IMG/VR virus record: IMGVR_UViG_2877948078_000002
Reading direction: 5' to 3' (one strand)
Length of the DNA: 46,331 nt
From: a virus
Lineage: Duplodnaviria; Heunggongvirae; Uroviricota; Caudoviricetes
Under the pieces are notes generated by a model, which had not been told where the DNA came from, ran no database searches, and was given only the letters and a program-made list of their open reading frames with translations. How positions within the stretch are numbered: the first letter of the stretch is position 1; the number at the start of each line of letters is the position of its first letter. Made by a program: the position numbers and the translations under genes. Positions 20 through 46,331 of the stretch are shown here, piece after piece.

Positions 20-1315
20 TTAATTTTTCATTGCTTCGTTATGGGGCATGGTTGGGGCAAACTCGCTTAACTGTGTATTTAACAAAGCTACCTGTGCATT
101 ATTGTTTTCAGACATCCATTTTCCGTATACCTGAAATACCATTTGCGCATCTGCATGGCCCATCTGGTTTGCTATAAATGCCGGGTTAGCACCAGCTGTC
201 AGCGACCAGCAGGCATAAGTATGTCTCGACTGATATGATTTTCGATGGCGGAGTCCGGCACGTTTTATCGCTGCGTCCCACATCTGCCTTATTGAGTCAA
301 CGGTAAAATGGTCACCATAATTTTTTACTCTCGCTGACACTTCAGGTTGAAAAACAAAGGTGCATTTTTGTTTTTCTGTTCTGCCATACTCTCTGAGGTG
401 AACATCAATGATATGCTCTTTGCTCAGTCTTGTTAATGTCATCTGACTCCAGAGAGCGTCGATTGCTGGCTTAATAAGATGAATGACCCGATTGGTTCCC
501 GCCTGTGTTTTTGGTACCGTGAAACGGTCTTTTGCTAAATTTCTCCTGATCATCATTGTTCCATTTTTCAGATCTATGTCCTCCCATCCAAGTGCACACA
601 GCTCACCAGGGCGAATGCCAGTATAAACAGAAACACACCATAAATTTTTTGCTTGCTGATTTCTGCACGCATCGATAAGACGGATAAATTCCTCCCGCGA
701 AAGAGGATCCGGAATGGTTCTTGATTCCTTTAATGGCGAGATCCCCTTAAACGGATTATCTGCCAGGTAACCGTTATCAACACCAAACTGGAACACGGCG
801 TTAAGATTTGTCATGTAATTATTTACAGTTACAGCCGATCTCCCTGGTTGTGTAACAATATAGTTACTTTTGGGGATCTGGTATCCAGTCAGTAGCTCTT
901 TACGAACCTCCAGTAATTTTTCTTTATTAATCGATGAGGCAAGATTTTTTTCACCGATTATGCTCAGGATATTTTTGATGACGGCACGGTATGTGTTGAG
1001 TGATGTTTTGGCGACTTCAGTTTCTTTCAGTGCCAGAAATTTTTCAGCCAGTTCTTTTATGGTTAAATCTTGTCGGGCCTCACCAAATTTTTCCAGATTG
1101 CGTGAGGAGGGAAACTGTTTTGCATAGTCGAAAACACCAGTTTTTATTGCGTAACAAACAGAGGAGCGTAGTTCACCTGCAACGCGCCTGTTTTTTGCTG
1201 TGTCAGGAACCCCCAGATTTTCCCTGACTCTTACGCCTTTATAAACAAACCAGATACGTAATTTCCCTCCATGGTTTTCCACGCCTGTCGGATATTTCAT
1301 TTCAACTTCTCTCAT
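20..1315 (-). CDS. int: Phage integrase, tyrosine recombinase (lambda Int family)
   Basis: 431-aa ORF; C-terminal catalytic region with conserved R...HxxR...Y pattern (…RHTYACWSLTAGANPAFIANQMGHADAQMVFQVYGKWM…); located at the prophage end next to an excisionase-like gene. Confidence 0.9.
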   Translation of the reverse strand: MREVEMKYPTGVENHGGKLRIWFVYKGVRVRENLGVPDTAKNRRVAGELRSSVCYAIKTGVFDYAKQFPSSRNLEKFGEARQDLTIKELAEKFLALKETEVAKTSLNTYRAVIKNILSIIGEKNLASSINKEKLLEVRKELLTGYQIPKSNYIVTQPGRSAVTVNNYMTNLNAVFQFGVDNGYLADNPFKGISPLKESRTIPDPLSREEFIRLIDACRNQQAKNLWCVSVYTGIRPGELCALGWEDIDLKNGTMMIRRNLAKDRFTVPKTQAGTNRVIHLIKPAIDALWSQMTLTRLSKEHIIDVHLREYGRTEKQKCTFVFQPEVSARVKNYGDHFTVDSIRQMWDAAIKRAGLRHRKSYQSRHTYACWSLTAGANPAFIANQMGHADAQMVFQVYGKWMSENNNAQVALLNTQLSEFAPTMPHNEAMKN

Positions 1316-1334: not shown

Positions 1335-1586
1335 TCAAGTAAGATGACGTCTTGGTCTCGCTGATGCCTGGCGCTCAATCCAGCGATCAATTTCTTCCAG
1401 GTTGTAAAAGCATGGACTGTTATCCCATGGCATACCGTCATGAGCGACATGCTTATATTCCCTTCCTTCCATAAACGATTTTTCCCGGGCCTTTTTTAAC
1501 GTACCTTTTTTTATTCCTTTCAGCGCAATTAACTGCTCTTCGGATACCCATTTGCCGGGAGAGACAATCATGATTACTTCGCTCAT
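1335..1586 (-). CDS. xis: Excisionase-like protein (Xis)
   Basis: 83-aa ORF immediately upstream of int on the same strand; resembles Rac YdaQ/XisR as recalled (…VSPGKWVSEEQLIALKGIKKGTL…GREYKHV…). Confidence 0.65.
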   Translation of the reverse strand: MSEVIMIVSPGKWVSEEQLIALKGIKKGTLKKAREKSFMEGREYKHVAHDGMPWDNSPCFYNLEEIDRWIERQASARPRRHLT

Positions 1587-1658: not shown

Positions 1659-4130
1659 TTAAGAATCAGCCTGACTCGGGATCAGTTTTTGCCAGATAAC
1701 TGAAACGTATTTTGCCTGGTAACGGGCGTCATCAAGTGCATTATGGCGCTCACCTTCGAATGGAATAGCCGTTCTGGCATCGAAGTCTATGGCTTTCCCC
1801 AGCTCAACGATTGTGCGTACATCGCGATCGTTGTAGTAACGCCACGGGCAGGGGATCCCCTGCCGTTCGTATGAACGGCGCAAAATCGTGTTGTCGAAGT
1901 TGGCTCCATTTCCCCAAACCTGAACAAAAAATTCACCGGAGTTTTCGTCGATAAATTCCCGCAATTGTAACAGTGCATCATCTAACGGGATTTCATCGGT
2001 CATAATGGCAGATTGCGCTTCGCGTGATTGCTTAAGCCACCATTTAATGGTGTCCCGATCAATGACTCCGCCAGCAGTTTCCAGATCGATAGTCTTACTA
2101 AATTCCGGTCCCATATCTCCGGTTTGCGGATCGAAAAATATTGCACCTATTGAGATGATCGGGGCATCAGGATTTTTTCCCATGGTTTCAAGGTCGATCA
2201 TTAGATGGTCACACGTCCTGCTGGTGGATGTGATTTCGTGATGACCGTTCACCTTAATTGGGTGATCTGCCGTCTCGCCAGTTTCATTATCGCTATTGTG
2301 ATGCTGATTGCCGCCAGTGTTCTCCTTGTGTGGATGTTCAGCGCCTTCCATTTCCTCCGGATCATCTTCCTGAACTTCAACCTGATACTCTTCATCGAAT
2401 GTTTCCTGGTATGTTGCGTCGCCCATCACCGCGCCACAATCAGGGCAGTTGCCGCCGCCGGTCTGACCGCAGGCGGTGCAGGCTTTTTCCACTTCCTGGT
2501 GCGCCACTGGTTCAGGCTGTTTCGTTTCTGGCTCGTTTTGTAACGCATTTGGACTGTTTTGTTCCGCTTTTTGGTAGTTCCGTTCCGATTCATGCTGGTT
2601 CTGGTTCACAGAATCGCGGGTCTGGATCCCCTTAACCCATTTCGGATCATTCGGGTCACTAATCCCTTCAACAAATTCACCACGTGATGCAGCAAGCAAC
2701 TTATCGGCGTCAGGCTGGCTGATATTGGCTGCCTGCATAATTTTGTTTACTTCGTCAGCAGTAACTTTTATCGGCTCTGGTTGTTCTGAATCTTCAGCGG
2801 TATCTACATTTTGCGGTAAGCCCGTGTATGTGCCATTTTTTCGGGCAAAATATTCTTCTTTTGTGATTTCAGTGGCGCCAGCAGCCAGTGCCTTATCCAG
2901 ACCAGAAAGTTTGTTTGCGCGACCGTATTTTTCTCCGTCCTTATCTGCGAAGAGGAAATAGAACGGCCCCTCACGCTCTACAGATGGTTCAGCTTCCGGC
3001 GCGGTTTCATTTTTTGGGATATCAGATACCTCAGTTTCCACTGCATCAGTTTGTGTTTCTGATGACTGGAGAACATCAACAGTGCCCAGGTCTGTTTCTT
3101 CATTTTCAAACACGCCCTTTGTCGTCAGGTATTCGCAGGTATATTTGTTCAGTGCTACGGGATCTTTGTGAATGTCGATCGGACGCTCACGGACAAGGCC
3201 AAAAATAGTTTGGCGGTCGTAGCGAAGGGCATCAGGCTGTTTGCGCATTGATGCCGAGATACGCTTCCAGTCTTCGCGGTCGTTGTCGATAACTTCTTTT
3301 TTTGCCCAGCGATGGATGCTGCCGTCAATGTTTCCGGCATCCACATCACCAGGCCAGAGAGCGTAGGCCAGTTCGTCATCCAGTGTTTTCCATGTCTGCT
3401 TGTATTCGCGATGAATGGCAGCAATGACCGGGCTGATTTTTCCTGTTGAATTTTCAGTGTACTGTTGATTGGCTCTGGCGCGGGCGAGATCAACAACAGA
3501 CGTGTATTTTCCGGTTTCCTTGCGTTCACCTTCGCGACGTTTTTTCCAGATGCGCATCTCTGCCTGAATTTCGGGCCATTTAGCACCAGGAATACATTTA
3601 TGCTTAACCCACCCAATGGCGTGCAACTTAAGCTCCGGATACATGGCGTTAACTTCTGGCATTTTCATCAACGCTTCAACGATATGTCCGTCGAATGTTG
3701 CCATGTCTTCCTGCAACAATTCCTGTGCGCTAATCACCATATCAACGGTGATGTTTTCACATGTGTCGAACTTAACCATGACAGCGTTCTGTACTTCAGG
3801 GGCCAGCTTGTCAAAAGTGACGTTCATCGGATCGGATTCAGTCTCAACCGGGACAAAAGAAGCAGACTCCTCATCCCAGCGGTTTTCCTGCATATATTCA
3901 GCATCCCATGAATCGAGGGCAGGGCGGGGTATGCCAGGTTTATCCTCGCAGACAATAAATTTATAAGCGCAGTCCTGAGCAGCCGGATAATGTTCCAGGA
4001 ATTGCCAGTGAAATTTTGCTCGAGCACGGCGTTCGTCGCCAGCTTCAATGGCTGTGGCTACAGCCACAGCGCCTTCTTCCCTTGTTGCCAGTTCGTCAGG
4101 AATAGCGGCGCAAATAAAGACTTTACTCAT
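1659..4130 (-). CDS. Large early protein with C-terminal DEDDh (DnaQ-like) 3'-5' exonuclease domain; annotated in relatives as exodeoxyribonuclease VIII-like; occupies the ydfE position
   Basis: 823-aa ORF; C-terminus shows three exonuclease motifs ([30 protein letters not shown]); acidic low-complexity linker and a CxxC…CxxC element mid-protein; no Bet/RecT-like partner gene nearby. Confidence 0.75.
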
Positions 4131-4223
4131 TTTGTTTTAACCTCATGACAGATTTAAGGATGAACAAATCCCTGCCATTGCTGGCATATAAGAATGAAAC
4201 CGGATATTTATTACGGAACTGTT

Positions 4224-4415
4224 TTAAAGACCTGCCGGGATTTCGATATTATCCTGGTGAATAACTTTATCGACCGGGTAACAGTTACCGGGAATTTTCT
4301 GTTCGGTTGCTGCAGTCATACACTCCTGCATTGTCCTGTGAACACTGACTGCAATATCAACTGGCACTCCGGGAACAAGAAAAACTGTCAGAACAAGCGC
4401 AAATGCTGAATTCAT
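4224..4415 (-). CDS. ydfD: YdfD-like small protein (63 aa) with hydrophobic N-terminus; K-12 homologue reported to cause lysis when overexpressed
   Basis: Internal ATG at 4413-4415 (minus) gives a 63-aa product MNSAFALVLTVFLVPGV…; start overlaps the dicB stop (ATGA); position downstream of dicB as in Qin. Confidence 0.55.
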   Translation of the reverse strand: MNSAFALVLTVFLVPGVPVDIAVSVHRTMQECMTAATEQKIPGNCYPVDKVIHQDNIEIPAGL

Positions 4416-4600
4416 TGTGCACATCCTTTTGGCATCAGACGTAAACGAGCCAGCATTGAAACAATGCATATTTTATTTAATAGCTCCCGTTCTTGTTTTC
4501 TCTTGTTAATGGCATCTTCAGTAAATACAGGGTTACTGATAGTGACACCAATTTCAAAACAACCTTCAGACGTATTAACGTTTGGTAATAACGTTTTCAT
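4412..4600 (-). CDS. dicB: Cell-division inhibitor DicB (MinC-activating)
   Basis: 62-aa product MKTLLPNVNTSEGCFEIGVTISNPVFTEDAINKRKQERELLNKICIVSMLARLRLMPKGCAQ matches DicB as recalled in sequence and length; lies just downstream of dicF. Confidence 0.85.
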   Translation of the reverse strand: MKTLLPNVNTSEGCFEIGVTISNPVFTEDAINKRKQERELLNKICIVSMLARLRLMPKGCAQ

Positions 4601-4769
4601 TATCGCGTCCTCAACAATGAATTTTGTGATGCAGTGCCTGGTGCCTCCAGGTGACGTTAACCAGTTAACAATTAACGTCGGATACAGAGAATCCACCCAT
4701 AACACTGTTTTTGGTTTTAACTGTTCCGCGTGCGCTTAGCCGCATTCACCGCATCACAAAATTCACTTT

Positions 4770-4827
4770 AAAAACGGCGGCAGAGCAGTCACGGAGTAAA
4801 ACTGATACCGCCAAACGTCACCAGAAA
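4770..4827 (-). ncRNA. dicF: DicF small RNA (ftsZ-targeting sRNA) with intrinsic terminator
   Basis: Reverse complement of 4775..4827 reads TTTCTGGTGACGTTTGGCGGTATCAGTTTTACTCCGTGACTGCTCTGCCGCC followed by a T-run, matching the recalled 53-nt DicF; sits between ydfA-side ORFs and dicB as in Qin. Confidence 0.8.
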
Positions 4828-5086
4828 ATTGATAACAGAGGGCGTTGCAGCGGGGTTGTCACTTAAGCGTATGGTCAACCTGACAACTCGGTGTCCTCAA
4901 CGGGGAAGGAATAACCCCGCCATACTTACCGCCGCGCCATTTTGCGGGTTGCCACAACCGGAAGCGCACGGTCGAATTAAATTTAACGACACCGTACAGT
5001 GAGACGAACTTCGCCGTGCGCTTTCGTGTTGTGTGCCTGCTTTTAACCACGTCAGGCGAGGTGGTATCCTTAAAATCACCACAGTT

Positions 5087-5662
5087 TTAAGGATTCATTA
5101 AGCAATGTCGCAACCACCAATAAATCCGCTTAAGAACATGAAAATTGATTACTGGTATAAAGCGCTTACAGTTGTTGGCGCTGCGTTGTTTGTCTTTAAT
5201 GGAACGTCTTTTTTTGACAGATATCCCGTTGTTCCATTGGGTTTTTTGTCCTCCGGCATCTTTTTTATTGGTTTGGGGGAGTGGATTAATCACCCTCTCA
5301 AAGTGAGATTTATTGATCCTGGAGTTTGGACTCGTGGATATAATCGTTCTTCGTGCGCACTCAGTATCATCTTCGACATACTTGGTTGTTTCCTGATTGT
5401 TACAGGAGTCGTCAAGTTCTTCTGATGTAAAACCGCAAATGGGGCACGTAACGGGAATTTTGAAAAGCGTTTCTCCGGGTTCCAGAACAAAATTTTCTGC
5501 GGTCTGATTTTGCTTCTCATATTTGTGCTCCGCGTCATTGTGAGAGCACATTCTTATTCTGAGTGCCTGTTTAAACTCACTGAAGCTGAGAGCTTCTTCG
5601 CCTTCGGCAAGGCCTTCGAAGTATTCTTCGTAAGCCTTTTCCATGATTGTGTCGAAATCCAT
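5087..5662 (-). CDS. Hypothetical early protein (191 aa from MDFDT…), acidic N-terminus with CxxC motif; possibly corresponds to ydfB/ydfC of K-12 in a longer open frame
   Basis: ATG at 5660-5662 (minus) lies 2 nt after the ydfA stop (TGAtATG) with a GGTGAG Shine-Dalgarno-like sequence; C-terminal half is K/R/N-rich and is exactly antisense to a plus-strand membrane-protein ORF, so the true extent is uncertain. Confidence 0.4.
   Translation of the reverse strand: MDFDTIMEKAYEEYFEGLAEGEEALSFSEFKQALRIRMCSHNDAEHKYEKQNQTAENFVLEPGETLFKIPVTCPICGFTSEELDDSCNNQETTKYVEDDTECARRTIISTSPNSRINKSHFERVINPLPQTNKKDAGGQKTQWNNGISVKKRRSIKDKQRSANNCKRFIPVINFHVLKRIYWWLRHCLMNP
5105..5425 (+). CDS. Putative small inner-membrane protein (SieB-like superinfection-exclusion candidate), antisense to the early-left operon
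   Basis: 106-aa ORF with AAGGA Shine-Dalgarno 10 nt upstream of the ATG; three hydrophobic segments (ALTVVGAALFVF; GFLSSGIFFIGLG; ALSIIFDILGCFLIVTGVV); opposite orientation to the surrounding genes, as sieB is in Rac (recalled). Confidence 0.3.
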   Translation: MSQPPINPLKNMKIDYWYKALTVVGAALFVFNGTSFFDRYPVVPLGFLSSGIFFIGLGEWINHPLKVRFIDPGVWTRGYNRSSCALSIIFDILGCFLIVTGVVKFF

Positions 5663-5663
5663 A

Positions 5664-5819
5664 TCACTCACCTGAGTTTCTTTCCAGCCAGCGACGGGCA
5701 CCATTTTCGGTTTTAAACGTTTTGCTTTTGGTATACGTCATCGCGGTGAACGTGCCGTCCTGGTTGGGGAACACGCCACATACCAGAGATTCGCTGTTGC
5801 CAAGATCGATAGTATCCAT
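5664..5819 (-). CDS. ydfA: YdfA-like small protein (51 aa)
   Basis: Internal ATG at 5817-5819 gives 51 aa MDTIDLGNSESLVCGVFPNQDGTFTAMTYTKSKTFKTENGARRWLERNSGE; first gene downstream of dicA on the same strand, as in Qin. Confidence 0.7.
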   Translation of the reverse strand: MDTIDLGNSESLVCGVFPNQDGTFTAMTYTKSKTFKTENGARRWLERNSGE

Positions 5820-5933
5820 GCTGACCTCATTTCCCCTTAACGCCGGGGTAGCGGAACTGTTTGCTGAGAACACCGTGCGGTGTCTTGATGGAAAGCAATT
5901 TAGAATAACCTAACATAAGAGGCAAGTGTTTTT

Positions 5934-5951
5934 TGTTAGATTAGTCTAACA
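5934..5951. promoter_or_regulatory. Palindromic operator TGTTAGA-N4-TCTAACA (putative DicA site) in the promoter region of the leftward ydfA…dicB operon
   Basis: Perfect 7-bp inverted repeat with 4-bp spacer (TGTTAGATTAGTCTAACA) between dicA stop and ydfA start; second copy of the same half-sites at 6445..6462. Confidence 0.6.
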
Positions 5952-5987
5952 AAAAGAGTGGGCGCAACTAATCACTTGAAAAGAATG

Positions 5988-6395
5988 TTATTTTATTGAT
6001 TTATTTTTACGCGCTTTAAGCATTTCTTCGAAGAGTTTGTTGAAGTTTTCTACTCTTGCGCGCATTTCAGACAGCAAGGCTTCCTGCTCGGAAGATGGAA
6101 GAGCATCGAATAATTCGATCAATTCTTTGTGGTTGGGAGTTAGCTCTGTTTCCACATGAAGTTCTTGTGCCGGCACTGGTGCCTTGTCTTCGTCACCAAA
6201 CATTAGCCATGTAGGTGAGCACTTCAGAGCATCCGCTAAAGCAAACAATCGTTTTCCGACTGGCTGGGTTTCGTCTCTTTCCCATTGTGAAATTGTGACG
6301 TGAGCAACCCCAGCGAGGCGCGCAGCTTCTCGTTGTGTTAAGCGTAATTCTTTTCGTCGCGCCAGAACTCGCTGGCCTAGGGTTCTTGTATCCAT
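5988..6395 (-). CDS. dicA: Prophage repressor DicA (XRE-family HTH, C2/cI-like)
   Basis: 135-aa product MDTRTLGQRVLARRKELRLTQREAARLAGVAHVTISQWERDETQP… with HTH motif; closely resembles DicA as recalled; divergent from a cro-like gene. Confidence 0.9.
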   Translation of the reverse strand: MDTRTLGQRVLARRKELRLTQREAARLAGVAHVTISQWERDETQPVGKRLFALADALKCSPTWLMFGDEDKAPVPAQELHVETELTPNHKELIELFDALPSSEQEALLSEMRARVENFNKLFEEMLKARKNKSIK

Positions 6396-6417
6396 AGTTA
6401 GGTAATTCTAATTTTTC

Positions 6418-6445
6418 TTGACTTAGGTATCCCGCGCACAATAAT
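6418..6445 (+). promoter_or_regulatory. Candidate sigma70 promoter for dicC (-35 TTGACT, about 16-17 nt spacer, -10 CATAAT/ATAATG) overlapping the operator
   Basis: TTGACT at 6418..6423, -10-like hexamer at 6440..6446, operator palindrome begins at 6445. Confidence 0.45.
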
Positions 6446-6462
6446 GTTAGAAAAGTCTAACA
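6445..6462. promoter_or_regulatory. Palindromic operator TGTTAGA-N4-TCTAACA in the dicA/dicC divergent intergenic region
   Basis: TGTTAGAAAAGTCTAACA; identical half-sites to the 5934..5951 copy; overlaps the -10/+1 of the dicC promoter candidate. Confidence 0.6.
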
Positions 6463-6475
6463 ATAGGAGGCTTTG

Positions 6476-6703
6476 ATGCTTAAAGCTGACGCAATTACTT
6501 TTTTTGGCAGCAAAACAAAGCTTGCCAATGCCGCAGGAGTGAGACTGGCAAGTGTTGCTGCTTGGGGGATACTGGTTCCTGAAGGTCGCGCGATGCGTCT
6601 ACAGGAGGCATCTGGCGGGGAGCTTCAGTATGATCCCAAAGTTTATGACGAATATCGTAAGACGAAGCGGGCGGGGCGATTGAACAATGAAAATCACTCC
6701 TGA
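6476..6703 (+). CDS. dicC: Cro-like regulator DicC
   Basis: About 75-aa product MLKADAITFFGSKTKLANAAGVRLASVAAWG…EGRAMRLQEASGGELQYDPKVYDEY…; AGGAGG Shine-Dalgarno 5 nt upstream of the ATG; divergent from dicA. Confidence 0.85.
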   Translation: MLKADAITFFGSKTKLANAAGVRLASVAAWGILVPEGRAMRLQEASGGELQYDPKVYDEYRKTKRAGRLNNENHS

Positions 6704-7208
6704 ACAGGCTCGTGAGGCTCTGGATGCCTGGATATGTCGACCAGGAATGACACAGGAGCAGGCGACGATATTAATCACTGAAGCATTCTGGGCTTTGAAA
6801 GAGCGCCCGAACATCGATGTTCAGCGTGTCACAGATGAAGGTGGCGCGGTTGATCAGCGAGCGCTTGGCGTTAATCGAGTGAAGATATTCGAACGCTGGA
6901 AGGCTATCGACACTAGGGATAAGCGTGAAAAGTTCACGGCGCTAGTGCCTGCAATTATGGAGGCTATCCGGATTAATGATTTCAGGTTGTATCGTGAAAT
7001 TAGTGACGGAAAAAGCATCACGTACATGATCGCCGGGTTAAACAAAGAATATGGCGATGTGGTGGAGTCCGGACTGCTTTTTGCTGATCCTGCCGTAGTG
7101 GATCGTGAAACTGACGAACTTATAGAAAAAGCAATTGCTTTCAAACTTGCGTATCGACTGCAATACCAACAAAAAGCTGGATGGAATTATGAGCCTTCTT
7201 TTTGCTGA
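6687..7208 (+). CDS. Hypothetical early protein immediately downstream of the cro-like gene (position of cII/YdaT-like regulators)
   Basis: 173-aa ORF overlapping the dicC end and the replication gene start; no motif I can assign with confidence. Confidence 0.55.
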   Translation: MKITPEQAREALDAWICRPGMTQEQATILITEAFWALKERPNIDVQRVTDEGGAVDQRALGVNRVKIFERWKAIDTRDKREKFTALVPAIMEAIRINDFRLYREISDGKSITYMIAGLNKEYGDVVESGLLFADPAVVDRETDELIEKAIAFKLAYRLQYQQKAGWNYEPSFC

Positions 7209-8934: not shown

Positions 8935-10422
8935 GTGGACATTAGAGACTGGCTACCAGAATTTCAAGTTTCAGCAGAAACAGATCGGGACTTACAGACC
9001 TATTTTTTTAAGCTACCGGCGATAAAGGATATTATTGAAAGTAGGGCTTGGTTGGTTCTTGGAAGAAAAGGTACTGGTAAAACAGCCATTTATGAACACC
9101 TTAGAAGAGGAAAACCAGCCAATCTCAACGGGTTTTACTCAGTATGTCTAAATTTTAGTGACTATCCATGGCCAGCCCATCAACTTTACAAGGATGCAAT
9201 GGCTGGAGAACTTTCCGCTTATCAAAAAAGTTGGATGTATCTTTTTTATATTAAGGCATTATCTAAACTTATTGAAATAAAAAATGATGCTGGAGAGACT
9301 TTAAACAAAGATCTAACGTGGGCACATAATTATATCAAAACTATCTTTGGTAGTCCCGACCCAACTCTTAGGGAGGTTTTGTTTTCAAAAATAACTAGAT
9401 TAAAAACCATAAAAGGGCCCAGTGCTGGTCTTAATGAAGTATCATTGGACGCAGGTGAAATTTCGTTAGAGGAAGTTGCTGAGAATGCTCAGCTAAAGCA
9501 AAAGCTAAGAGCTAATGCTTTCACATTGCTTACGTATTTTGAAAAAATTTTTAAAGATAACATTGGTAATGAAAAAATAATTATCGCCCTTGACCAATTA
9601 GACGAAAACTGGCTAGAGGGGCAAATTGAAGAATATAGTAAGGTTTTAATAAATCTGCTAAATGTCTGTAGAAACATAGCATCTGATGAACGCCTCAATG
9701 ATAAATTAAAAGTCATTCCCTTCCTACGAACGGATATTTATCATTCTTTGAAATTCAATGATAAAAACAAATTATTGCAAGATAGTGCTATCATAATCTC
9801 ATGGAATGAAAATAATCTAAACGATATGTATTATGAGAGGATAAAGAAATACAAACCTAATGATCTCATATTAGATGACGAAAAGGACAGATCTGGGAAA
9901 GTATTTGAGGTTTCATTCGTTAGGCAGGGGACTCCTCCATTTAAATATATATGTCGCCGTTCTTTCTTTAGGCCTAGGGATATTATTGTCTACTTCAACA
10001 AAATTAGGGCATGTCATAAAAATAATGTCTCAGGTCTTTACACTTCCAATGAGCTTTATGAAGCTGACCGTGAAGCATCTATAAGTGTGTACAATGAGGT
10101 GATTGATGAATGGTCCAACCAATTCCCTGAAATTGAGAACTTACTAACTGTTCTTCAAACTATCCAAGTAGAAACATTCGATTTTAATGATTTCTCCGAG
10201 AAGTGCCGTAATGAATTTGCAGGTATTTCTGATGGGGTGATACGTCAATATATCAACTTCCTGTTTGATAACTCACTTATCGGACAAAAAAAACAAGGTA
10301 GATGGGAATACGTAAGTAGTTTGCCTAACTTAAAAATTAATCTACAAAATGAGTTTAGGACACATCATGCTTTAAAATACAGGTTGCATTTAATAGAAAG
10401 CAGACCGAGCCAAAATATTTAG
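8935..10422 (+). CDS. Uncharacterized P-loop NTPase (495 aa): Walker A GRKGTGKT at residues 43-50, Walker B-like IIIALDQLDE at 215-224, uncharacterized C-terminal half of about 270 aa; candidate defence or exclusion gene
   Basis: GTG start with AAGAGGA Shine-Dalgarno; gene and upstream region visibly AT-rich compared with flanking phage genes (estimate by eye, roughly 35-40% versus about 50% G+C); occupies the slot that holds relBE next to hokD in K-12 Qin as recalled. Confidence 0.85.
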   Translation: MDIRDWLPEFQVSAETDRDLQTYFFKLPAIKDIIESRAWLVLGRKGTGKTAIYEHLRRGKPANLNGFYSVCLNFSDYPWPAHQLYKDAMAGELSAYQKSWMYLFYIKALSKLIEIKNDAGETLNKDLTWAHNYIKTIFGSPDPTLREVLFSKITRLKTIKGPSAGLNEVSLDAGEISLEEVAENAQLKQKLRANAFTLLTYFEKIFKDNIGNEKIIIALDQLDENWLEGQIEEYSKVLINLLNVCRNIASDERLNDKLKVIPFLRTDIYHSLKFNDKNKLLQDSAIIISWNENNLNDMYYERIKKYKPNDLILDDEKDRSGKVFEVSFVRQGTPPFKYICRRSFFRPRDIIVYFNKIRACHKNNVSGLYTSNELYEADREASISVYNEVIDEWSNQFPEIENLLTVLQTIQVETFDFNDFSEKCRNEFAGISDGVIRQYINFLFDNSLIGQKKQGRWEYVSSLPNLKINLQNEFRTHHALKYRLHLIESRPSQNI

Positions 10423-10439
10423 CTTACATCCATCTCCAT

Positions 10440-10694
10440 TAAGAAATCTTGCTATTGTTCTTATGGATCGTCTTTCTGACTGATTTCATATTGGCGAGGT
10501 AAAGGTAGTTAAGTAGAATGGCTGCGGGTGCTTGAGGCTATCTGCCTCGGGCATGAACACCAAAGGCAGATAGAGAAAAGCCCCAGTTAACATTACGCGT
10601 CCTGCAAGACGCTTAACATTAATCTGAGGCCAATTTCATGCTAGACACATGTAGGTTAGCCTCTTACGTGCCGAAAGGCAAGGAGAAGCAGTCT
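10440..10694. promoter_or_regulatory. hok mRNA leader / putative sok antisense RNA region with stable stem-loops
   Basis: Perfect 10-bp inverted repeat CTATCTGCCT…AGGCAGATAG (10538-10547 / 10564-10573), a second hairpin GCGTC…GACGC and direct repeats TTAACATTA around 10586..10625; in-frame upstream extension of hok (mok-like reading frame). Confidence 0.45.
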
Positions 10695-10850
10695 ATGAAG
10701 CAGCAAAAGGCGATGTTAATCGCCCTGATCGTCATCTGTTTAACCGTCATAGTGACGGCACTGGTAACGAGGAAAGACCTCTGCGAGGTACGAATCCGAA
10801 CCGGCCAGACGGAGGTCGCTGTCTTCACAGCTTACGAACCTGAGGAGTAA
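10695..10850 (+). CDS. hokD: Hok-family type I toxin (HokD/RelF-like, 51 aa)
   Basis: MKQQKAMLIALIVICLTVIVTALVTRKDLCEVRIRTGQTEVAVFTAYEPEE matches HokD/RelF as recalled; single transmembrane helix; AGGAG Shine-Dalgarno 9 nt upstream. Confidence 0.85.
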   Translation: MKQQKAMLIALIVICLTVIVTALVTRKDLCEVRIRTGQTEVAVFTAYEPEE

Positions 10851-11066: not shown

Positions 11067-11318
11067 ATGATGAACATCGAAGAACTGCGTAAAATTTTTT
11101 GTGAAGATGGCCTCTATGCTGTGTGCGTTGAAAATGGAAATCTTGTTAGTCATTACCGCATTATGTGTTTGCAAAAGAATGGGGCTGCGTTAATTAATTT
11201 TGTGGATGGTCGAGTGACAGACAGATTTATCTTGCGCGAAGGTGAGTTTGTCACTTCATTACAGGCACTGAAAGAGATCGGAATAAAAGCAGGCTTTTCA
11301 GCTTTTGCAGAAGAATAA
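11067..11318 (+). CDS. Hypothetical small protein (83 aa); same length and position as K-12 Rem
   Basis: 83-aa ORF between hok and ydfU; assignment to rem is by position and length only. Confidence 0.5.
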   Translation: MMNIEELRKIFCEDGLYAVCVENGNLVSHYRIMCLQKNGAALINFVDGRVTDRFILREGEFVTSLQALKEIGIKAGFSAFAEE

Positions 11319-14114: not shown

Positions 14115-14414
14115 AAAAATTCCTTAATACTGATAACTTGGCGCACTATACACACGTTCCTGAAGAAAGCTATAGTTTTTTGATGGGGTTGAAGATGGCT
14201 GGATGTCTAAAATAAACATTGCTTCATATGTTCAACTATGCGTTAATGATTGCGTCGGTTTGAAGAACAGACGATATACGAAGTAGTTTACTAAAGCAGT
14301 TCTCATTTCAGGTGTTATTCACTTATTCCTTCTTTGAGTCTCTCCAATTAAGTACGAAGTCGTTTCTGTTATGCAAACCATTTATGCCGAAAGGCTCAAG
14401 TTAAGGAATGTAGA

Positions 14415-14630
14415 ATGTCAAATAAAATGACTGGTTTAGTAAAATGGTTTAACGCTGATAAAGGTTTCGGCTTTATTTCTCCTGTTGATGGTAGTAAAGA
14501 TGTGTTTGTGCATTTTTCTGCGATTCAGAATGATAATTATCGAACCTTATTTGAAGGTCAAAAGGTTACCTTCTCTATAGAGAGTGGTGCTAAAGGTCCT
14601 GCAGCAGCAAATGTCATCATTACTGATTAA
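14415..14630 (+). CDS. cspB: Cold-shock protein CspB
   Basis: 71-aa product [71 protein letters not shown] with RNP1/RNP2 motifs; long 5' leader upstream. Confidence 0.9.
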
Positions 14631-14911
14631 AATTCATCGCTCGTCTGTATACGATAACGAAGAAGGCTGATGCCTGAGTAGAGATACGGACAGAGTAGTG
14701 AATATTGGATTTCTTTAATAAAAATTAAGGAGGTCCAATACATGAAACAATGGCCAGCATATTTGGCAAAATCTTAATCAGGAAAAGTATGCTAACCATT
14801 GTGGTGAAGTGCAGGTTTGCTGCATGAATAGTTTTACAGCAGAAGCTAACTGCTGGCATGGCAAAACAAAGTGCGTAAGTGGATGACTCCCACAAAAAGC
14901 ACCACAATCTC

Positions 14912-16939: not shown

Positions 16940-17302
16940 GGTAATATTAAATCGGAACATTTACATCGCGGAATGTAAAATTTAAATAAAAAGGACTCTT
17001 CCATGAGCCAAAATTCCTGAAATCTTAAGGGTAAGATAAAAGGTCTTAATCAGAATGACACGTTATTATTAATAAATAAAGCTATTCTTTCATTGCTGTG
17101 TTTTTCTTTACAAAAGTAATCCTTGCTATGGGTGGTTAATCATGCGTTAATGGTGTTCTGGTTTGTTACAAATTTATCTGAAGCAGTCATTGTTATAATT
17201 TTATTATTTGTACCTCTTGAGATTTCCTTGTTGGTTTTTCTCTCTGATATTTTTTTTCGGACCATTCTGCCCAAGGGCTAATTTCTTCAAAAGGTAATAA
17301 TT

Positions 17303-17515
17303 ATGTCTAACAAAATGACTGGTTTAGTGAAATGGTTTAACCCTGAAAAAGGTTTTGGTTTCATCACGCCGAAAGATGGCAGCAAAGATGTGTTTGTCCA
17401 TTTCTCAGCAATTCAGAGCAACGATTTCAAAACATTAACTGAGAATCAGGAAGTTGAATTTGGTATTGAGAACGGACCTAAAGGTCCTGCCGCTGTTCAT
17501 GTAGTGGCGCTTTGA
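17303..17515 (+). CDS. cspI: Cold-shock protein CspI
   Basis: 70-aa product [70 protein letters not shown]; long AT-rich 5' leader. Confidence 0.9.
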
Positions 17516-17719
17516 GGTAGACAATATTACAAACCATATTCACTTTAGATGCCCGTGTTGTCATGGTTCCCAGTATAGAACATCATCTTTTGATGTTTCT
17601 GACATGAATCCTTTCGGGGCAAAATGTATCTTTTGTAAATCAATGATGATTACATTTGATAATATTTCACAATACTTAAATGCCAGCCGTCTGTCGTTGG
17701 ATTTAAAAAAGTGAAAATG

Positions 17720-42000: not shown

Positions 42001-42450
42001 GAACAGGACGGCATTAAATCGCACACCCACAGCGCCAGCGCATCCAGTACGGATTTGGGGACGAAAACCACATCGTCGTTTGATTACGGCACTAAATCCA
42101 CGAATAACACCGGGGCGCATACCCATAGTGTTAGCGGTACGGCTGCTTCAGCCGGTGCACATACCCATTCGATAACATTTGTTTCAGGTGGCACCAAAGG
42201 TGCTCCGGGAAGTGGATCACCTGATTATTCTAAATACAGTGTTAACACTTCTTCTGCAGGCGCTCATACGCACTCTGTATCGGGTACTGCTGCAAGCGCA
42301 GGTGCACACGCACATACTGTAGGTATTGGTGCGCATACGCACTCGGTTGCGATTGGTTCACATGGACACACCATCACCGTTAACGCTGCTGGTAACGCGG
42401 AAAACACCGTCAAAAACATCGCATTTAACTATATTGTGAGGCTTGCATAA
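39100..42450 (+). CDS. stf: Side tail fibre protein (Stf) with long Ala/Ser/Thr-rich repeat region and C-terminal His-rich repeats
   Basis: About 1116-aa product beginning [27 protein letters not shown]…; low-complexity repeats ([17 protein letters not shown]…) across about 39480..40500; C-terminal GAHTHS repeats; stop overlaps the tfa start. Confidence 0.85.
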
Positions 42451-43025
42451 TGGCATTCAGAATGAGTGAACAACCACGGACCATAAAAATTTATAATCTG
42501 CTGGCCGGAACTAATGAATTTATTGGTGAAGGTGATGCATATATTCCGCCTCATACAGGTCTGCCAGCAAACAGTACCGATATTGCACCGCCAGATATTC
42601 CGGCTGGCTTCGTGGCTGTTTTCAACAGTGATGAGTCATCGTGGCATCTCGTTGAAGATCATCGGGGTAAAACGGTTTATGACGTGGCTTCCGGCGACGC
42701 GTTATTTATTTCTGAACTCGGTCCGTTACCGGAAAATGTTACCTGGTTATCGCCGGAAGGGGAGTTTCAGAAGTGGAACGGCACAGCCTGGGTGAAGGAT
42801 ACGGAAGCAGAAAAACTGTTCCGGATCCGGGAGGCGGAAGAAACAAAAAACAACCTGATGCAGGTAGCCAGTGAGCATATTGCGCCGCTTCAGGATGCTG
42901 CAGATCTGGAAATTGCAACGGAGGAAGAAATCTCGTTGCTGGAAGCATGGAAAAAGTATCGGGTATTGCTGAACCGTGTTGATACGTCAACTGCACAGGA
43001 TATTGAATGGCCAGCACTGCCGTAG
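42450..43025 (+). CDS. tfa: Tail fibre assembly protein (Tfa)
   Basis: 191-aa ORF immediately after stf (TAATG overlap); size and position of lambdoid Tfa. Confidence 0.85.
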
Positions 43026-44263: not shown

Positions 44264-45047
44264 GAAGATATTCCTTAAAATATTATTGATTTTCATTGCG
44301 ATATTGTATGTCTGATTCAGGATATGTTGACTTATACATCGGTTTTGTCTGGGTTATTGGATATGCCAATCCCTAATTTTATTAGGGCATGACTAAAAAT
44401 GCTGAATATGATAAGGAGAGAAGTGATTATCAGTATGCTGTTCATATAGCCTCGAATTAGTAATGTGTTATATATGATATAGTTGACAATTTTTATCTTG
44501 GGTGTTCTTAAAGTTCGTAGATAAACATTGTCGTTTCAGGTATACAGGAATGCTAACAGGTGGCAGCAAAAATCAGGCGGTTATGGCGCAAGCTGAAGCG
44601 GCAACTGCAAACTATCTTATGCAGAGACTCTACACGGATTGGGTTTAAAAGTATACATAGATAACAGTTTTTATCTGAAAAAGAAAAATATCAAGGTGAT
44701 ATAGCCTATATGCCTTTGATGCGGAGGAATGAATGTGATGGGAGTGATGTATCTGAATAGTTGAAAAACCGCAGACACGCCTTATGCAAGAACGTGCTGC
44801 GGTTGGCTGGTAAATTTTTCGATAGTGTGAGTATTGAATGATTTCCAGCCGTTCTTGATTTTACGCATAAATCCATGAAAAAACTACTTATCTGTTGGGG
44901 AGTTTTTTTGGGGCATATATGGGACAGAAATAGGCCCCAGATAGACACTGAGATCGAACTTAGGATGCTTTTTAAAAAATGCAACTATCTGAAAAAACCT
45001 AGAAAACGCCAAGGAAACCACAGGATGGGAAAAAACACCTGTGAATT

Positions 45048-46331
45048 ATGGATTTCCAGTTATATTCGCTCGGCGCAGCGTTGGTGTTTCATGAAATATT
45101 TTTTCCTGAATCATCAACGGCAATGGCGTTAATTCTGGCAATGGGAACCTACGGTGCAGGTTATGTCGCGCGTATTGTCGGAGCATTTATTTTCGGCAAA
45201 ATGGGCGACAGAATAGGGCGTAAAAAAGTGCTCTTTATTACCATCACCATGATGGGGATCTGTACCACCTTAATTGGTGTGTTACCGACCTATGCACAGA
45301 TTGGTGTTTTTGCCCCCATCTTGCTGGTGACGCTGCGTATTATTCAGGGGTTGGGTGCAGGTGCGGAAATTTCCGGTGCCGGTACGATGCTGGCGGAATA
45401 TGCACCAAAAGGTAAGCGCGGAATTATCTCCTCATTTGTAGCTATGGGAACTAACTGCGGAACCTTGAGCGCAACGGCAATCTGGGCCTTTATGTTCTTC
45501 ATTCTCAGTAAAGAGGAACTGCTGGCGTGGGGATGGCGTATACCGTTCCTGGCGAGCGTTGTCGTGATGGTCTTTGCTATCTGGTTACGTATGAATCTGA
45601 AAGAAAGCCCGGTCTTTGAGAAGGTTAATGACAGCAACCAACCCACAGCAAAACCTGCACCTGCTGGTAGCATGTTCCAGAGCAAATCCTTCTGGCTGGC
45701 AACAGGGCTGCGTTTTGGTCAGGCGGGTAACTCCGGGTTAATTCAGACTTTCCTTGCAGGCTATTTAGTGCAGACGTTATTGTTTAACAAAGCAATTCCA
45801 ACAGATGCATTGATGATTAGTTCGATTCTCGGCTTTATGACCATTCCGTTCCTTGGTTGGTTATCCGATAAAATTGGTCGCCGGATCCCGTATATTATTA
45901 TGAATACCTCCGCGATTGTGCTGGCATGGCCAATGCTTTCTATCATTGTAGATAAAAGCTATGCCCCGAGCACCATTATGGTTGCACTGATTGTGATTCA
46001 TAACTGTGCGGTGCTGGGATTATTTGCTCTGGAAAACATTACCATGGCAGAAATGTTCGGCTGTAAAAACCGCTTTACCCGGATGGCTATTTCTAAAGAA
46101 ATTGGTGGTCTTATCGCTTCCGGTTTTGGTCCTATCCTGGCGGGTATTTTCTGCACCATGACGGAATCCTGGTATCCGATCGCCATTATGATCATGGCAT
46201 ATTCAGTAATTGGTTTAATCTCTGCGCTGAAAATGCCAGAGGTGAAAGACCGTGATTTAAGTGCGCTGGAAGACGCTGCGGAAGATCAACCGCGTGTTGT
46301 AAGAGCTGCGCAACCTTCCAGAAGTCTGTAA
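45048..46331 (+). CDS. ydfJ: MFS transporter YdfJ (metabolite:proton symporter family), probably N-terminally truncated by the prophage insertion
   Basis: 427-aa ORF with multiple transmembrane segments and MFS signature GKMGDRIGRKK; begins inside the conserved first transmembrane region with a stop codon directly upstream of the ATG. Confidence 0.8.
   Translation: MDFQLYSLGAALVFHEIFFPESSTAMALILAMGTYGAGYVARIVGAFIFGKMGDRIGRKKVLFITITMMGICTTLIGVLPTYAQIGVFAPILLVTLRIIQGLGAGAEISGAGTMLAEYAPKGKRGIISSFVAMGTNCGTLSATAIWAFMFFILSKEELLAWGWRIPFLASVVVMVFAIWLRMNLKESPVFEKVNDSNQPTAKPAPAGSMFQSKSFWLATGLRFGQAGNSGLIQTFLAGYLVQTLLFNKAIPTDALMISSILGFMTIPFLGWLSDKIGRRIPYIIMNTSAIVLAWPMLSIIVDKSYAPSTIMVALIVIHNCAVLGLFALENITMAEMFGCKNRFTRMAISKEIGGLIASGFGPILAGIFCTMTESWYPIAIMIMAYSVIGLISALKMPEVKDRDLSALEDAAEDQPRVVRAAQPSRSL

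Follow-up and report, generated by a model that had tools for sequence, protein, structure and literature searches.

The window analysed here, a stretch of DNA of 46,331 nucleotides, very probably carries the canonical dicBF operon, which occupies the early-left (pL-equivalent) position in a lambdoid prophage of the mEp460 type at ydfJ. As its DicF RNA and its DicB protein are essentially identical to the molecules studied in E. coli K-12, the mechanisms worked out in K-12 offer the best explanation of what this module would do. The three elements of the module, i.e. dicF, dicB and ydfD, all lie on the minus strand, a detail that was absent from the earlier note on this DNA, and their near-identity to experimentally studied genes rules out chance or mis-called open reading frames (ORFs). 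The system is an already known one in its ordinary context. The positions of the features discussed below are collected in Table 1.

Table 1. Features of the window, with the evidence on which each assignment is based
Feature	Position	Strand	Evidence
Tyrosine integrase, intact	20-1300	-	Pfam Arm-DNA-bind_2 and Phage_integrase
Excisionase	1335-1586	-	83/83 aa identical to mEp460_ev081 Xis
Exonuclease, 823 aa, downstream of ydfD	1659-4130	-	Pfam Rv2179c-like 3'-5' exonuclease domain; full-length match to mEp460_ev081 gene
ydfD, 63 aa, DUF1482 (Pfam PF07358) lysis protein	4224-4415	-	K-12 alignment, Pfam
dicB, 62 aa, MinC-dependent division inhibitor by identity to the K-12 protein	4412-4600	-	K-12 alignment, Pfam, NCBIfam
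dicF sRNA, 53 nt	4775-4827	-	Rfam RF00039 and K-12 alignment; U-run at 4770-4774
DicF 190-nt precursor, 5' part	4828-4964	-	135/137 nt identical to K-12
ydfB-like ORF	5087-5662	-	First ~34 codons match K-12 ydfB; remainder crosses cassette
Small membrane protein gene, 106 aa, antisense inside the operon, between ydfB and dicF	5105-5425	+	Protein homologues
ydfA, 51 aa, DUF1391, first gene of the operon	5664-5819	-	K-12 ydfA alignment; phrog_751 match
dicBp-like promoter with two TGTTAG-N6-CTAACA operators	5898-5951	-	Aligns with K-12 dicBp
DicA-type repressor, 135 aa	5988-6395	-	NCBIfam DicA, 224.7 bits (cut-off 101)
Operator, perfect palindrome, dicA/dicC intergenic	6445-6462		Operator search
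DicC/Cro-like regulator, 76 aa, divergent	6473-6703	+	Pfam P22_Cro, 47.8 bits (cut-off 30.2)
P-loop ATPase, 495 aa, Sll1717 family	8935-10422	+	NCBIfam, 250.4 bits
hokD/sok type I toxin-antitoxin locus, intact	10526-10850	+	Rfam sok, 116.3 bits
rem, homologue of the Qin antirepressor of DicA	11067-11318	+	78/83 aa identical to K-12 Rem
cspA-type 5'-UTR thermoregulator matches (two)	14254-14646, 17157-17542	+	158.8 and 112.8 bits
Rfam IS009 match	42793-42991	+	220.9 bits
att core TTATGGATTTC at the ydfJ end of the prophage	45046-45056		Same 11-bp repeat bounding K-12 Qin

A scan of the whole window with Rfam returned a single DicF match (RF00039, positions 4775-4826), which covers the full model (1-52 of 52) and scores 72.5 bits (E 3.5e-14) against a gathering score of 48. 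In the alignment with the Qin region of K-12 MG1655, the gene agrees with b1574 at 52 of 53 nt, the sole difference being the last base (C to G), which lies between the terminator stem and the U-run; nucleotides 1-52 are identical to those of the experimentally validated K-12 RNA. The DicF that the earlier note had described as exact-looking, with its terminator, is therefore present but near-exact. The MFE fold of the RNA consists of a single-stranded 5' part, a terminator hairpin at nt 16-52 and a following GUUUUU. Within a polycistronic operon, the gene precedes dicB, in the same position as in K-12, and the spacer between dicF and dicB is identical to that of K-12 at 171 of 174 nt. In K-12, the precursor region contains the sites at which RNase III and RNase E act (PMC10448788), and the precursor in the window is likewise expected to be processed by these two enzymes. 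The predicted pairing of DicF with the ftsZ leader, which was that of K-12 and not that of the strain of the window, reached -38.9 kcal/mol in RNAduplex, while shuffled sequences gave -32.2 +/- 4.2 kcal/mol and 32 of 500 of them paired equally well; as it was only marginally better than the shuffles, this pairing was set aside as evidence.

DicB is identical to its K-12 counterpart over all 62 amino acids, with one synonymous change in the gene, and matches Pfam PF05358 with 136.8 bits (cut-off 27) and NCBIfam NF049927 with 132.8 bits (cut-off 100). The K-12 protein blocks the Z-ring in a MinC-dependent manner and inhibits ManYZ, which leads to resistance to lambda-type phages (PMC6832061); judged from the identity, DicB of the window would exert the same MinC-dependent block of the Z-ring and the same block of ManYZ. 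The ATG of ydfD overlaps the stop codon of dicB as ATGA. Both the 62-aa DicB and the overlapping 63-aa YdfD-like peptide proposed in the earlier note were thus found, and the two comparisons that it had suggested as checks, with the Rfam DicF model and with K-12, are in favour of its identifications: the former gave the score reported above, and the latter left nt 1-52 of dicF unchanged, the DicB frame intact and YdfD identical at 60 of 63 amino acids, the changes being V6A, S15P and E17V.

All three substitutions in YdfD fall within residues 1-28, the N-terminal domain that binds IspG (PMC8835842), and small truncations at either end of the protein are known to abolish lysis (PMC8835842). S15P (codon 15, window position 4373) is absent from all five aligned YdfD relatives, and we count its location in the reported IspG-binding domain against the best explanation. 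When a 751-bp module query was searched against 5426 complete E. coli genomes, none of them contained a 100% match, and the one mismatch that separates the query from the best matches is probably due to S15P. These changes could have weakened or inactivated the YdfD allele, such that DicF and DicB would be active and the outcome would be division arrest only. We consider such a loss of YdfD function improbable, as the reading frame, the two conserved cysteines (C32 and C45, both invariant) and the whole C-terminal domain are intact, DUF1482 is still matched with 86.5 bits (cut-off 25), and V6A and E17V also occur in four and one of the five compared relatives, respectively.

The promoter region of the operon in the window aligns with that of K-12. 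Of the two operators at the dicBp-like promoter, the one at 5934-5951 is a perfect palindrome, and the other, at 5898-5915, is a copy with 2 mismatches located between the -35 and -10 elements. In Pfam, the DicA-type repressor contains an HTH domain only, with no peptidase S24 domain, and in BLASTP comparisons it is just 57% identical to K-12 DicA, a point against the best explanation, while the divergent DicC-like regulator is 86% identical to K-12 DicC. A short HTH repressor, a Cro-like gene running in the opposite direction and a palindromic operator at each of the two promoters make the immunity region recognizable from its sequence as one of the DicA/DicC type. The operator half-sites TGTTAG/CTAACA are those of K-12, although the repressor has diverged to the extent given above. 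A consensus promoter and terminator scan of positions 3900-6800 was discarded, because its counts were at chance level and it missed both dicBp and the dicF terminator.

In K-12, dicF, dicB and ydfD are co-transcribed from the DicA-repressed promoter (PMC10448788), and conservation of the window relative to K-12 extends over the promoter with its operators, the precursor region and the junctions between the genes, which argues for the co-expression of the module genes that had been proposed earlier. No transcript past ydfD was detected in K-12 (PMC10448788), and this we count against the best explanation, as exo, xis and int follow ydfD in the window; no N-like antiterminator was noticed in passing downstream of dicBp. 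A weak terminator-like hairpin is located at 4173-4186 on the minus strand, between ydfD and the exonuclease gene, in a spacer identical to that of K-12 at 92 of 93 nt.

The operon departs from that of K-12 between ydfB and dicF, where a cassette of ~500 bp takes the place of the ydfC segment of K-12, and homology to K-12 resumes ~170 nt upstream of dicF. Beyond its first ~34 codons, the ydfB-like ORF runs through this cassette and is probably not coding on the minus strand; PGAP annotates ydfB as a truncated pseudogene in near-identical genomes. On the opposite strand, the cassette contains an ORF of 106 aa, which is preceded by an AAGGA ribosome-binding site and encodes three hydrophobic segments. 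Homologues of its product (100-110 aa, 35-56% identity) were found in Yersinia, Herminiimonas and Reinekea, and further ones in phage mEp390, Burkholderia phage Bcep176 (gp33) and metagenomes, and the motifs DYWYK and G-GEW-NHP are invariant across the homologues. These comparisons mark the ORF as a real conserved gene. The protein matched no family in Pfam, PHROGs, NCBIfam or PADLOC, PGAP leaves the gene unannotated in both of the near-identical RefSeq genomes that were examined, and an overlapping minus-strand ORF has been called in its place by phage annotators. The gene context of the Herminiimonas and Reinekea homologues was uninformative, the neighbours being ordinary chromosomal or unannotated genes. 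This member of a DYWYK/GLGEWINHP family, antisense between the DicA-controlled promoter and dicF, might be a moron expressed in the lysogen, e.g. for superinfection exclusion, or its convergent transcription might tune the output of DicF, DicB and YdfD on derepression; we offer this proposal as a speculative one with a low probability.

A convergent gene between the promoter and dicF could reduce read-through, which is a further point against the best explanation. In the extreme case, convergent transcription from this gene, or termination within the cassette, would largely uncouple dicF and dicB from dicBp, and the two would be poorly expressed even when the promoter is derepressed. Such uncoupling would fit the presence of a real conserved gene on the opposite strand between ydfB and dicF, in a cassette that stands in for ydfC of K-12. 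Nevertheless, we hold it to be very unlikely, as 796 genomes and phage HannyBb have the complete cassette, and dicF, dicB and ydfD are intact downstream of it in every case, which argues for selection on the downstream genes; furthermore, the consensus scan of positions 3900-6800, which also missed dicBp, gave no promoter for the antisense gene.

On the right, the window ends with ydfJ, a host gene that borders Qin in K-12, and an att core lies at this end of the prophage; the second core, which is there in K-12 and NRG 857C, is expected ~19 nt past the left edge of the window, and its position outside the window is counted against the best explanation. The window can be assigned to an mEp460-like lambdoid prophage at the Qin (ydfJ) site of K-12. 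Its integrase, which is a pseudogene in K-12, is 98.8% identical to that of mEp460_ev081 over 426 of 426 aa, and its exonuclease is the intact form of the K-12 truncated pseudogene ydfE. For a test of completeness, the 51 principal annotated genes of mEp460_ev081 were translated and searched against the window. Single end-to-end matches, mostly at 90-100%, were obtained for the terminase large subunit, the adapter, the portal, the protease/capsid and head-tail proteins and the whole lambda-like tail set. Also matched singly from end to end were Lom, Tfa, Pin, Int, Xis, the exonuclease, the YdaT-like protein, the O-like replication protein, DUF977, hok, rem, ydfU, holin, lysozyme and Rz. The side tail fibre (Stf) is mosaic, with a two-piece match over an intact 1118-aa ORF, and the small terminase subunit (residues 11-154 of 164) together with the first 20 residues of the large subunit represents a divergent allele. 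The repressor, Q and the terminase small subunit are other alleles than those of mEp460_ev081, as expected in mosaic lambdoid phages; PHROGs assigns the terminase small subunit, Q and the O-like replication protein. The mEp460_ev081 genes without a counterpart in the window are accessory only.

Since none of the head, tail, lysis, replication and integration genes of mEp460_ev081 lacks a full-length counterpart in the window, the prophage appears complete at the sequence level, which bears out the earlier description of an apparently complete phage. Moreover, at least 80% of the first 25 kb of the window is common to 394 complete E. coli genomes, among which NRG 857C covers 100% of it at 98.5% identity with the same layout, and at least 80% of the late region is common to 873 complete E. 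coli genomes.

How the operon would be switched on is suggested by the genes around it. In K-12, the dicBF operon is reported not to respond to SOS inducers (PMC5069750). No CTGT-N8-ACAG LexA site occurs in the window, and of its 14 CTG-N10-CAG sites the best fits the 20-nt LexA consensus at 13 positions, with none lying upstream of rem. An SOS-controlled route is therefore unsupported, with no LexA box found in the window and a repressor consisting of an HTH domain only, and the word 'inducible' in the earlier note goes further than the sequence warrants. Repression by DicA of K-12 is reported to be lifted by the Rem antirepressor, by urea or high temperature, and through a bistable switch that depends on DicC (PMC10448788). 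By homology, derepression of the operon in the window would need either the Rem antirepressor or the DicA/DicC switch, and the Rem route is plausible because the window carries a rem gene whose product is identical to K-12 Rem at 78 of 83 aa, although Rem would have to act on a repressor only 57% identical to K-12 DicA.

A complete-looking prophage might still be cryptic or non-inducible, in which case the module would not be part of a lytic programme, and would instead serve the host through ManYZ-based phage exclusion and stress-linked division arrest, as has been proposed for K-12 Qin. The lack of a RecA-cleavable domain in the repressor and of a LexA box in the window would agree with such a role, as would the K-12 observations that the operon is not SOS-induced and that the natural signal for Rem is not known (PMC5069750, PMC10448788), and the fact that 4655 of 5426 genomes have kept the module, for the most part within prophages of varied context. 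However, all essential phage genes of the window are full length, nearly the same modules and layouts are found in deposited phage genomes, and mEp460_ev081 has been described as a functional temperate phage (PMC10448788). We thus regard a cryptic prophage as unlikely.

Under the preferred reading, i.e. a canonical dicBF operon on an mEp460-like prophage, the operon would be kept off during lysogeny by the DicA-type repressor acting on the TGTTAG-N6-CTAACA operators at dicBp and in the dicA/dicC promoter region. Once derepression through Rem or the bistable switch had taken place, a single transcript would cover ydfA, ydfB, the variable cassette, dicF, dicB and ydfD, from which RNase III and RNase E, as shown in K-12, would release DicF species of 190 nt and 53 nt. 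In K-12, the 3' region of DicF pairs with the ribosome-binding site of ftsZ with the assistance of Hfq, and the 5' region regulates xylR (PMC5069750); the RNA of the window would accordingly be predicted to block ftsZ translation together with Hfq, and to repress pykA and manX in addition to xylR, as the K-12 RNA does. DicB would bind MinC, direct it to the septum and stop Z-ring formation, and it would also block ManYZ and thereby exclude phages that inject through ManYZ, both of which have been shown in K-12. YdfD, which in K-12 binds IspG and lyses dividing cells, would be masked as long as DicB blocks division, since co-expression of DicB is reported to prevent the lysis (PMC8835842). The earlier reading of the module, in which derepression would co-express two FtsZ-directed inhibitors and a lysis-associated peptide, therefore holds for the identities of DicF, DicB and YdfD, and is overstated with regard to lysis: because DicB is reported to suppress lysis by YdfD (PMC8835842), co-expression does not simply add lysis to division arrest.

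The closest known system is the dicBF region of K-12 Qin (ydfABC-dicF-dicB-ydfDE with DicA/DicC and Rem), which shares with the window the ydfJ site, the gene order and the type of promoter and operator, and which differs from it by no more than one nucleotide in dicF, three residues in YdfD and five in Rem, with DicB identical and DicC at 86%. The K-12 prophage, in contrast, is cryptic and has lost most phage genes, whereas the window keeps int, xis, the exonuclease and the replication and structural genes. The two also differ in the repressor, which is only 57% identical, in the replacement of ydfC by the cassette with its antisense membrane-protein gene, and in the relBE-ydfV-flxA region of K-12, in place of which the window has a P-loop ATPase gene.

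Of 5426 complete E. coli genomes, 4655 carry the 751-bp module, and the median copy number among these carriers is two; the module is also found in 38 phage records, of which 8 cover at least 80% of the query. The mEp460-like phages mEp460_ev081 (LR597641), Tritos (OV696610), HannyBb (PP925841) and PhiR42_1 (PV340562) share the overall genome layout with the window and carry the module at 96.7-99.6% identity, although these are deposited phage genomes and the window is an integrated prophage with a host flank. The structural proteins of mEp460_ev081 are mostly 95-100% identical to those of the window, while its repressor (52%), Q (40%) and terminase small subunit (42%) are different, and its rusA and three other accessory genes are absent from the window. 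In the record of Tritos, a 'DicF antisense sRNA, inhibits ftsZ', DicB and YdfD are annotated beside the same exonuclease, excisionase and integrase. As late as 2016, dicBF was viewed as confined to defective prophages (PMC5069750); in 2023, Ragunathan et al., from the same laboratory, reported that the functional phage mEp460_ev081 carries dicB, dicF, dicAC and rem (PMC10448788). The novelty implied earlier for the module on an intact phage thus does not stand, as it had already been published for mEp460_ev081 (PMC10448788) and is visible in GenBank phage records.

The Gifsy GfoR/GfoA pairs of Salmonella also combine a short repressor lacking a RecA cleavage site with a small antirepressor, and this model has been proposed for DicA and Rem (PMC10448788). 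The Gifsy antirepressors, however, are LexA-controlled, whereas no LexA box was found in the window. The module is comparable by function alone to two further prophage systems. Lambda Kil and Rac KilR are small products of pL-type operons that block FtsZ-ring assembly on prophage derepression, and Kil acts on FtsZ in a ZipA-dependent manner; DicB, in contrast, acts via MinC, and DicF is an RNA.

The window adds little to what is known of the module, since few prophage products of E. coli have been studied as well as DicF, DicB and YdfD, and the occurrence of these three on full-length prophages and on a functional phage has been published and annotated. A strain with this prophage may nonetheless be a natural system in which to study the role of the module for the phage, such as its effects on burst size, lysis timing and the exclusion of ManYZ-dependent phages, though mEp460_ev081 already offers that.

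Several other genes of the prophage deserve mention. The 495-aa P-loop ATPase gene lies between the replication module and hok/sok, and its weak PADLOC match to PDC-M28C (E 4e-5) makes a defence-type accessory gene possible. The hokD/sok locus itself is located just upstream of rem. Beside pinQ, we looked for an invertible tail-fibre segment, and rejected it because the inverted repeats seen there were all short and imperfect, such as chance alone would produce. The IS009 match lies within the tail-fibre assembly gene (42450-43025), and may reflect conserved coding sequence and not a separate RNA. The two thermoregulator matches belong to the cold-shock genes cspB and cspI, which are located in the late/lysis region of the prophage.
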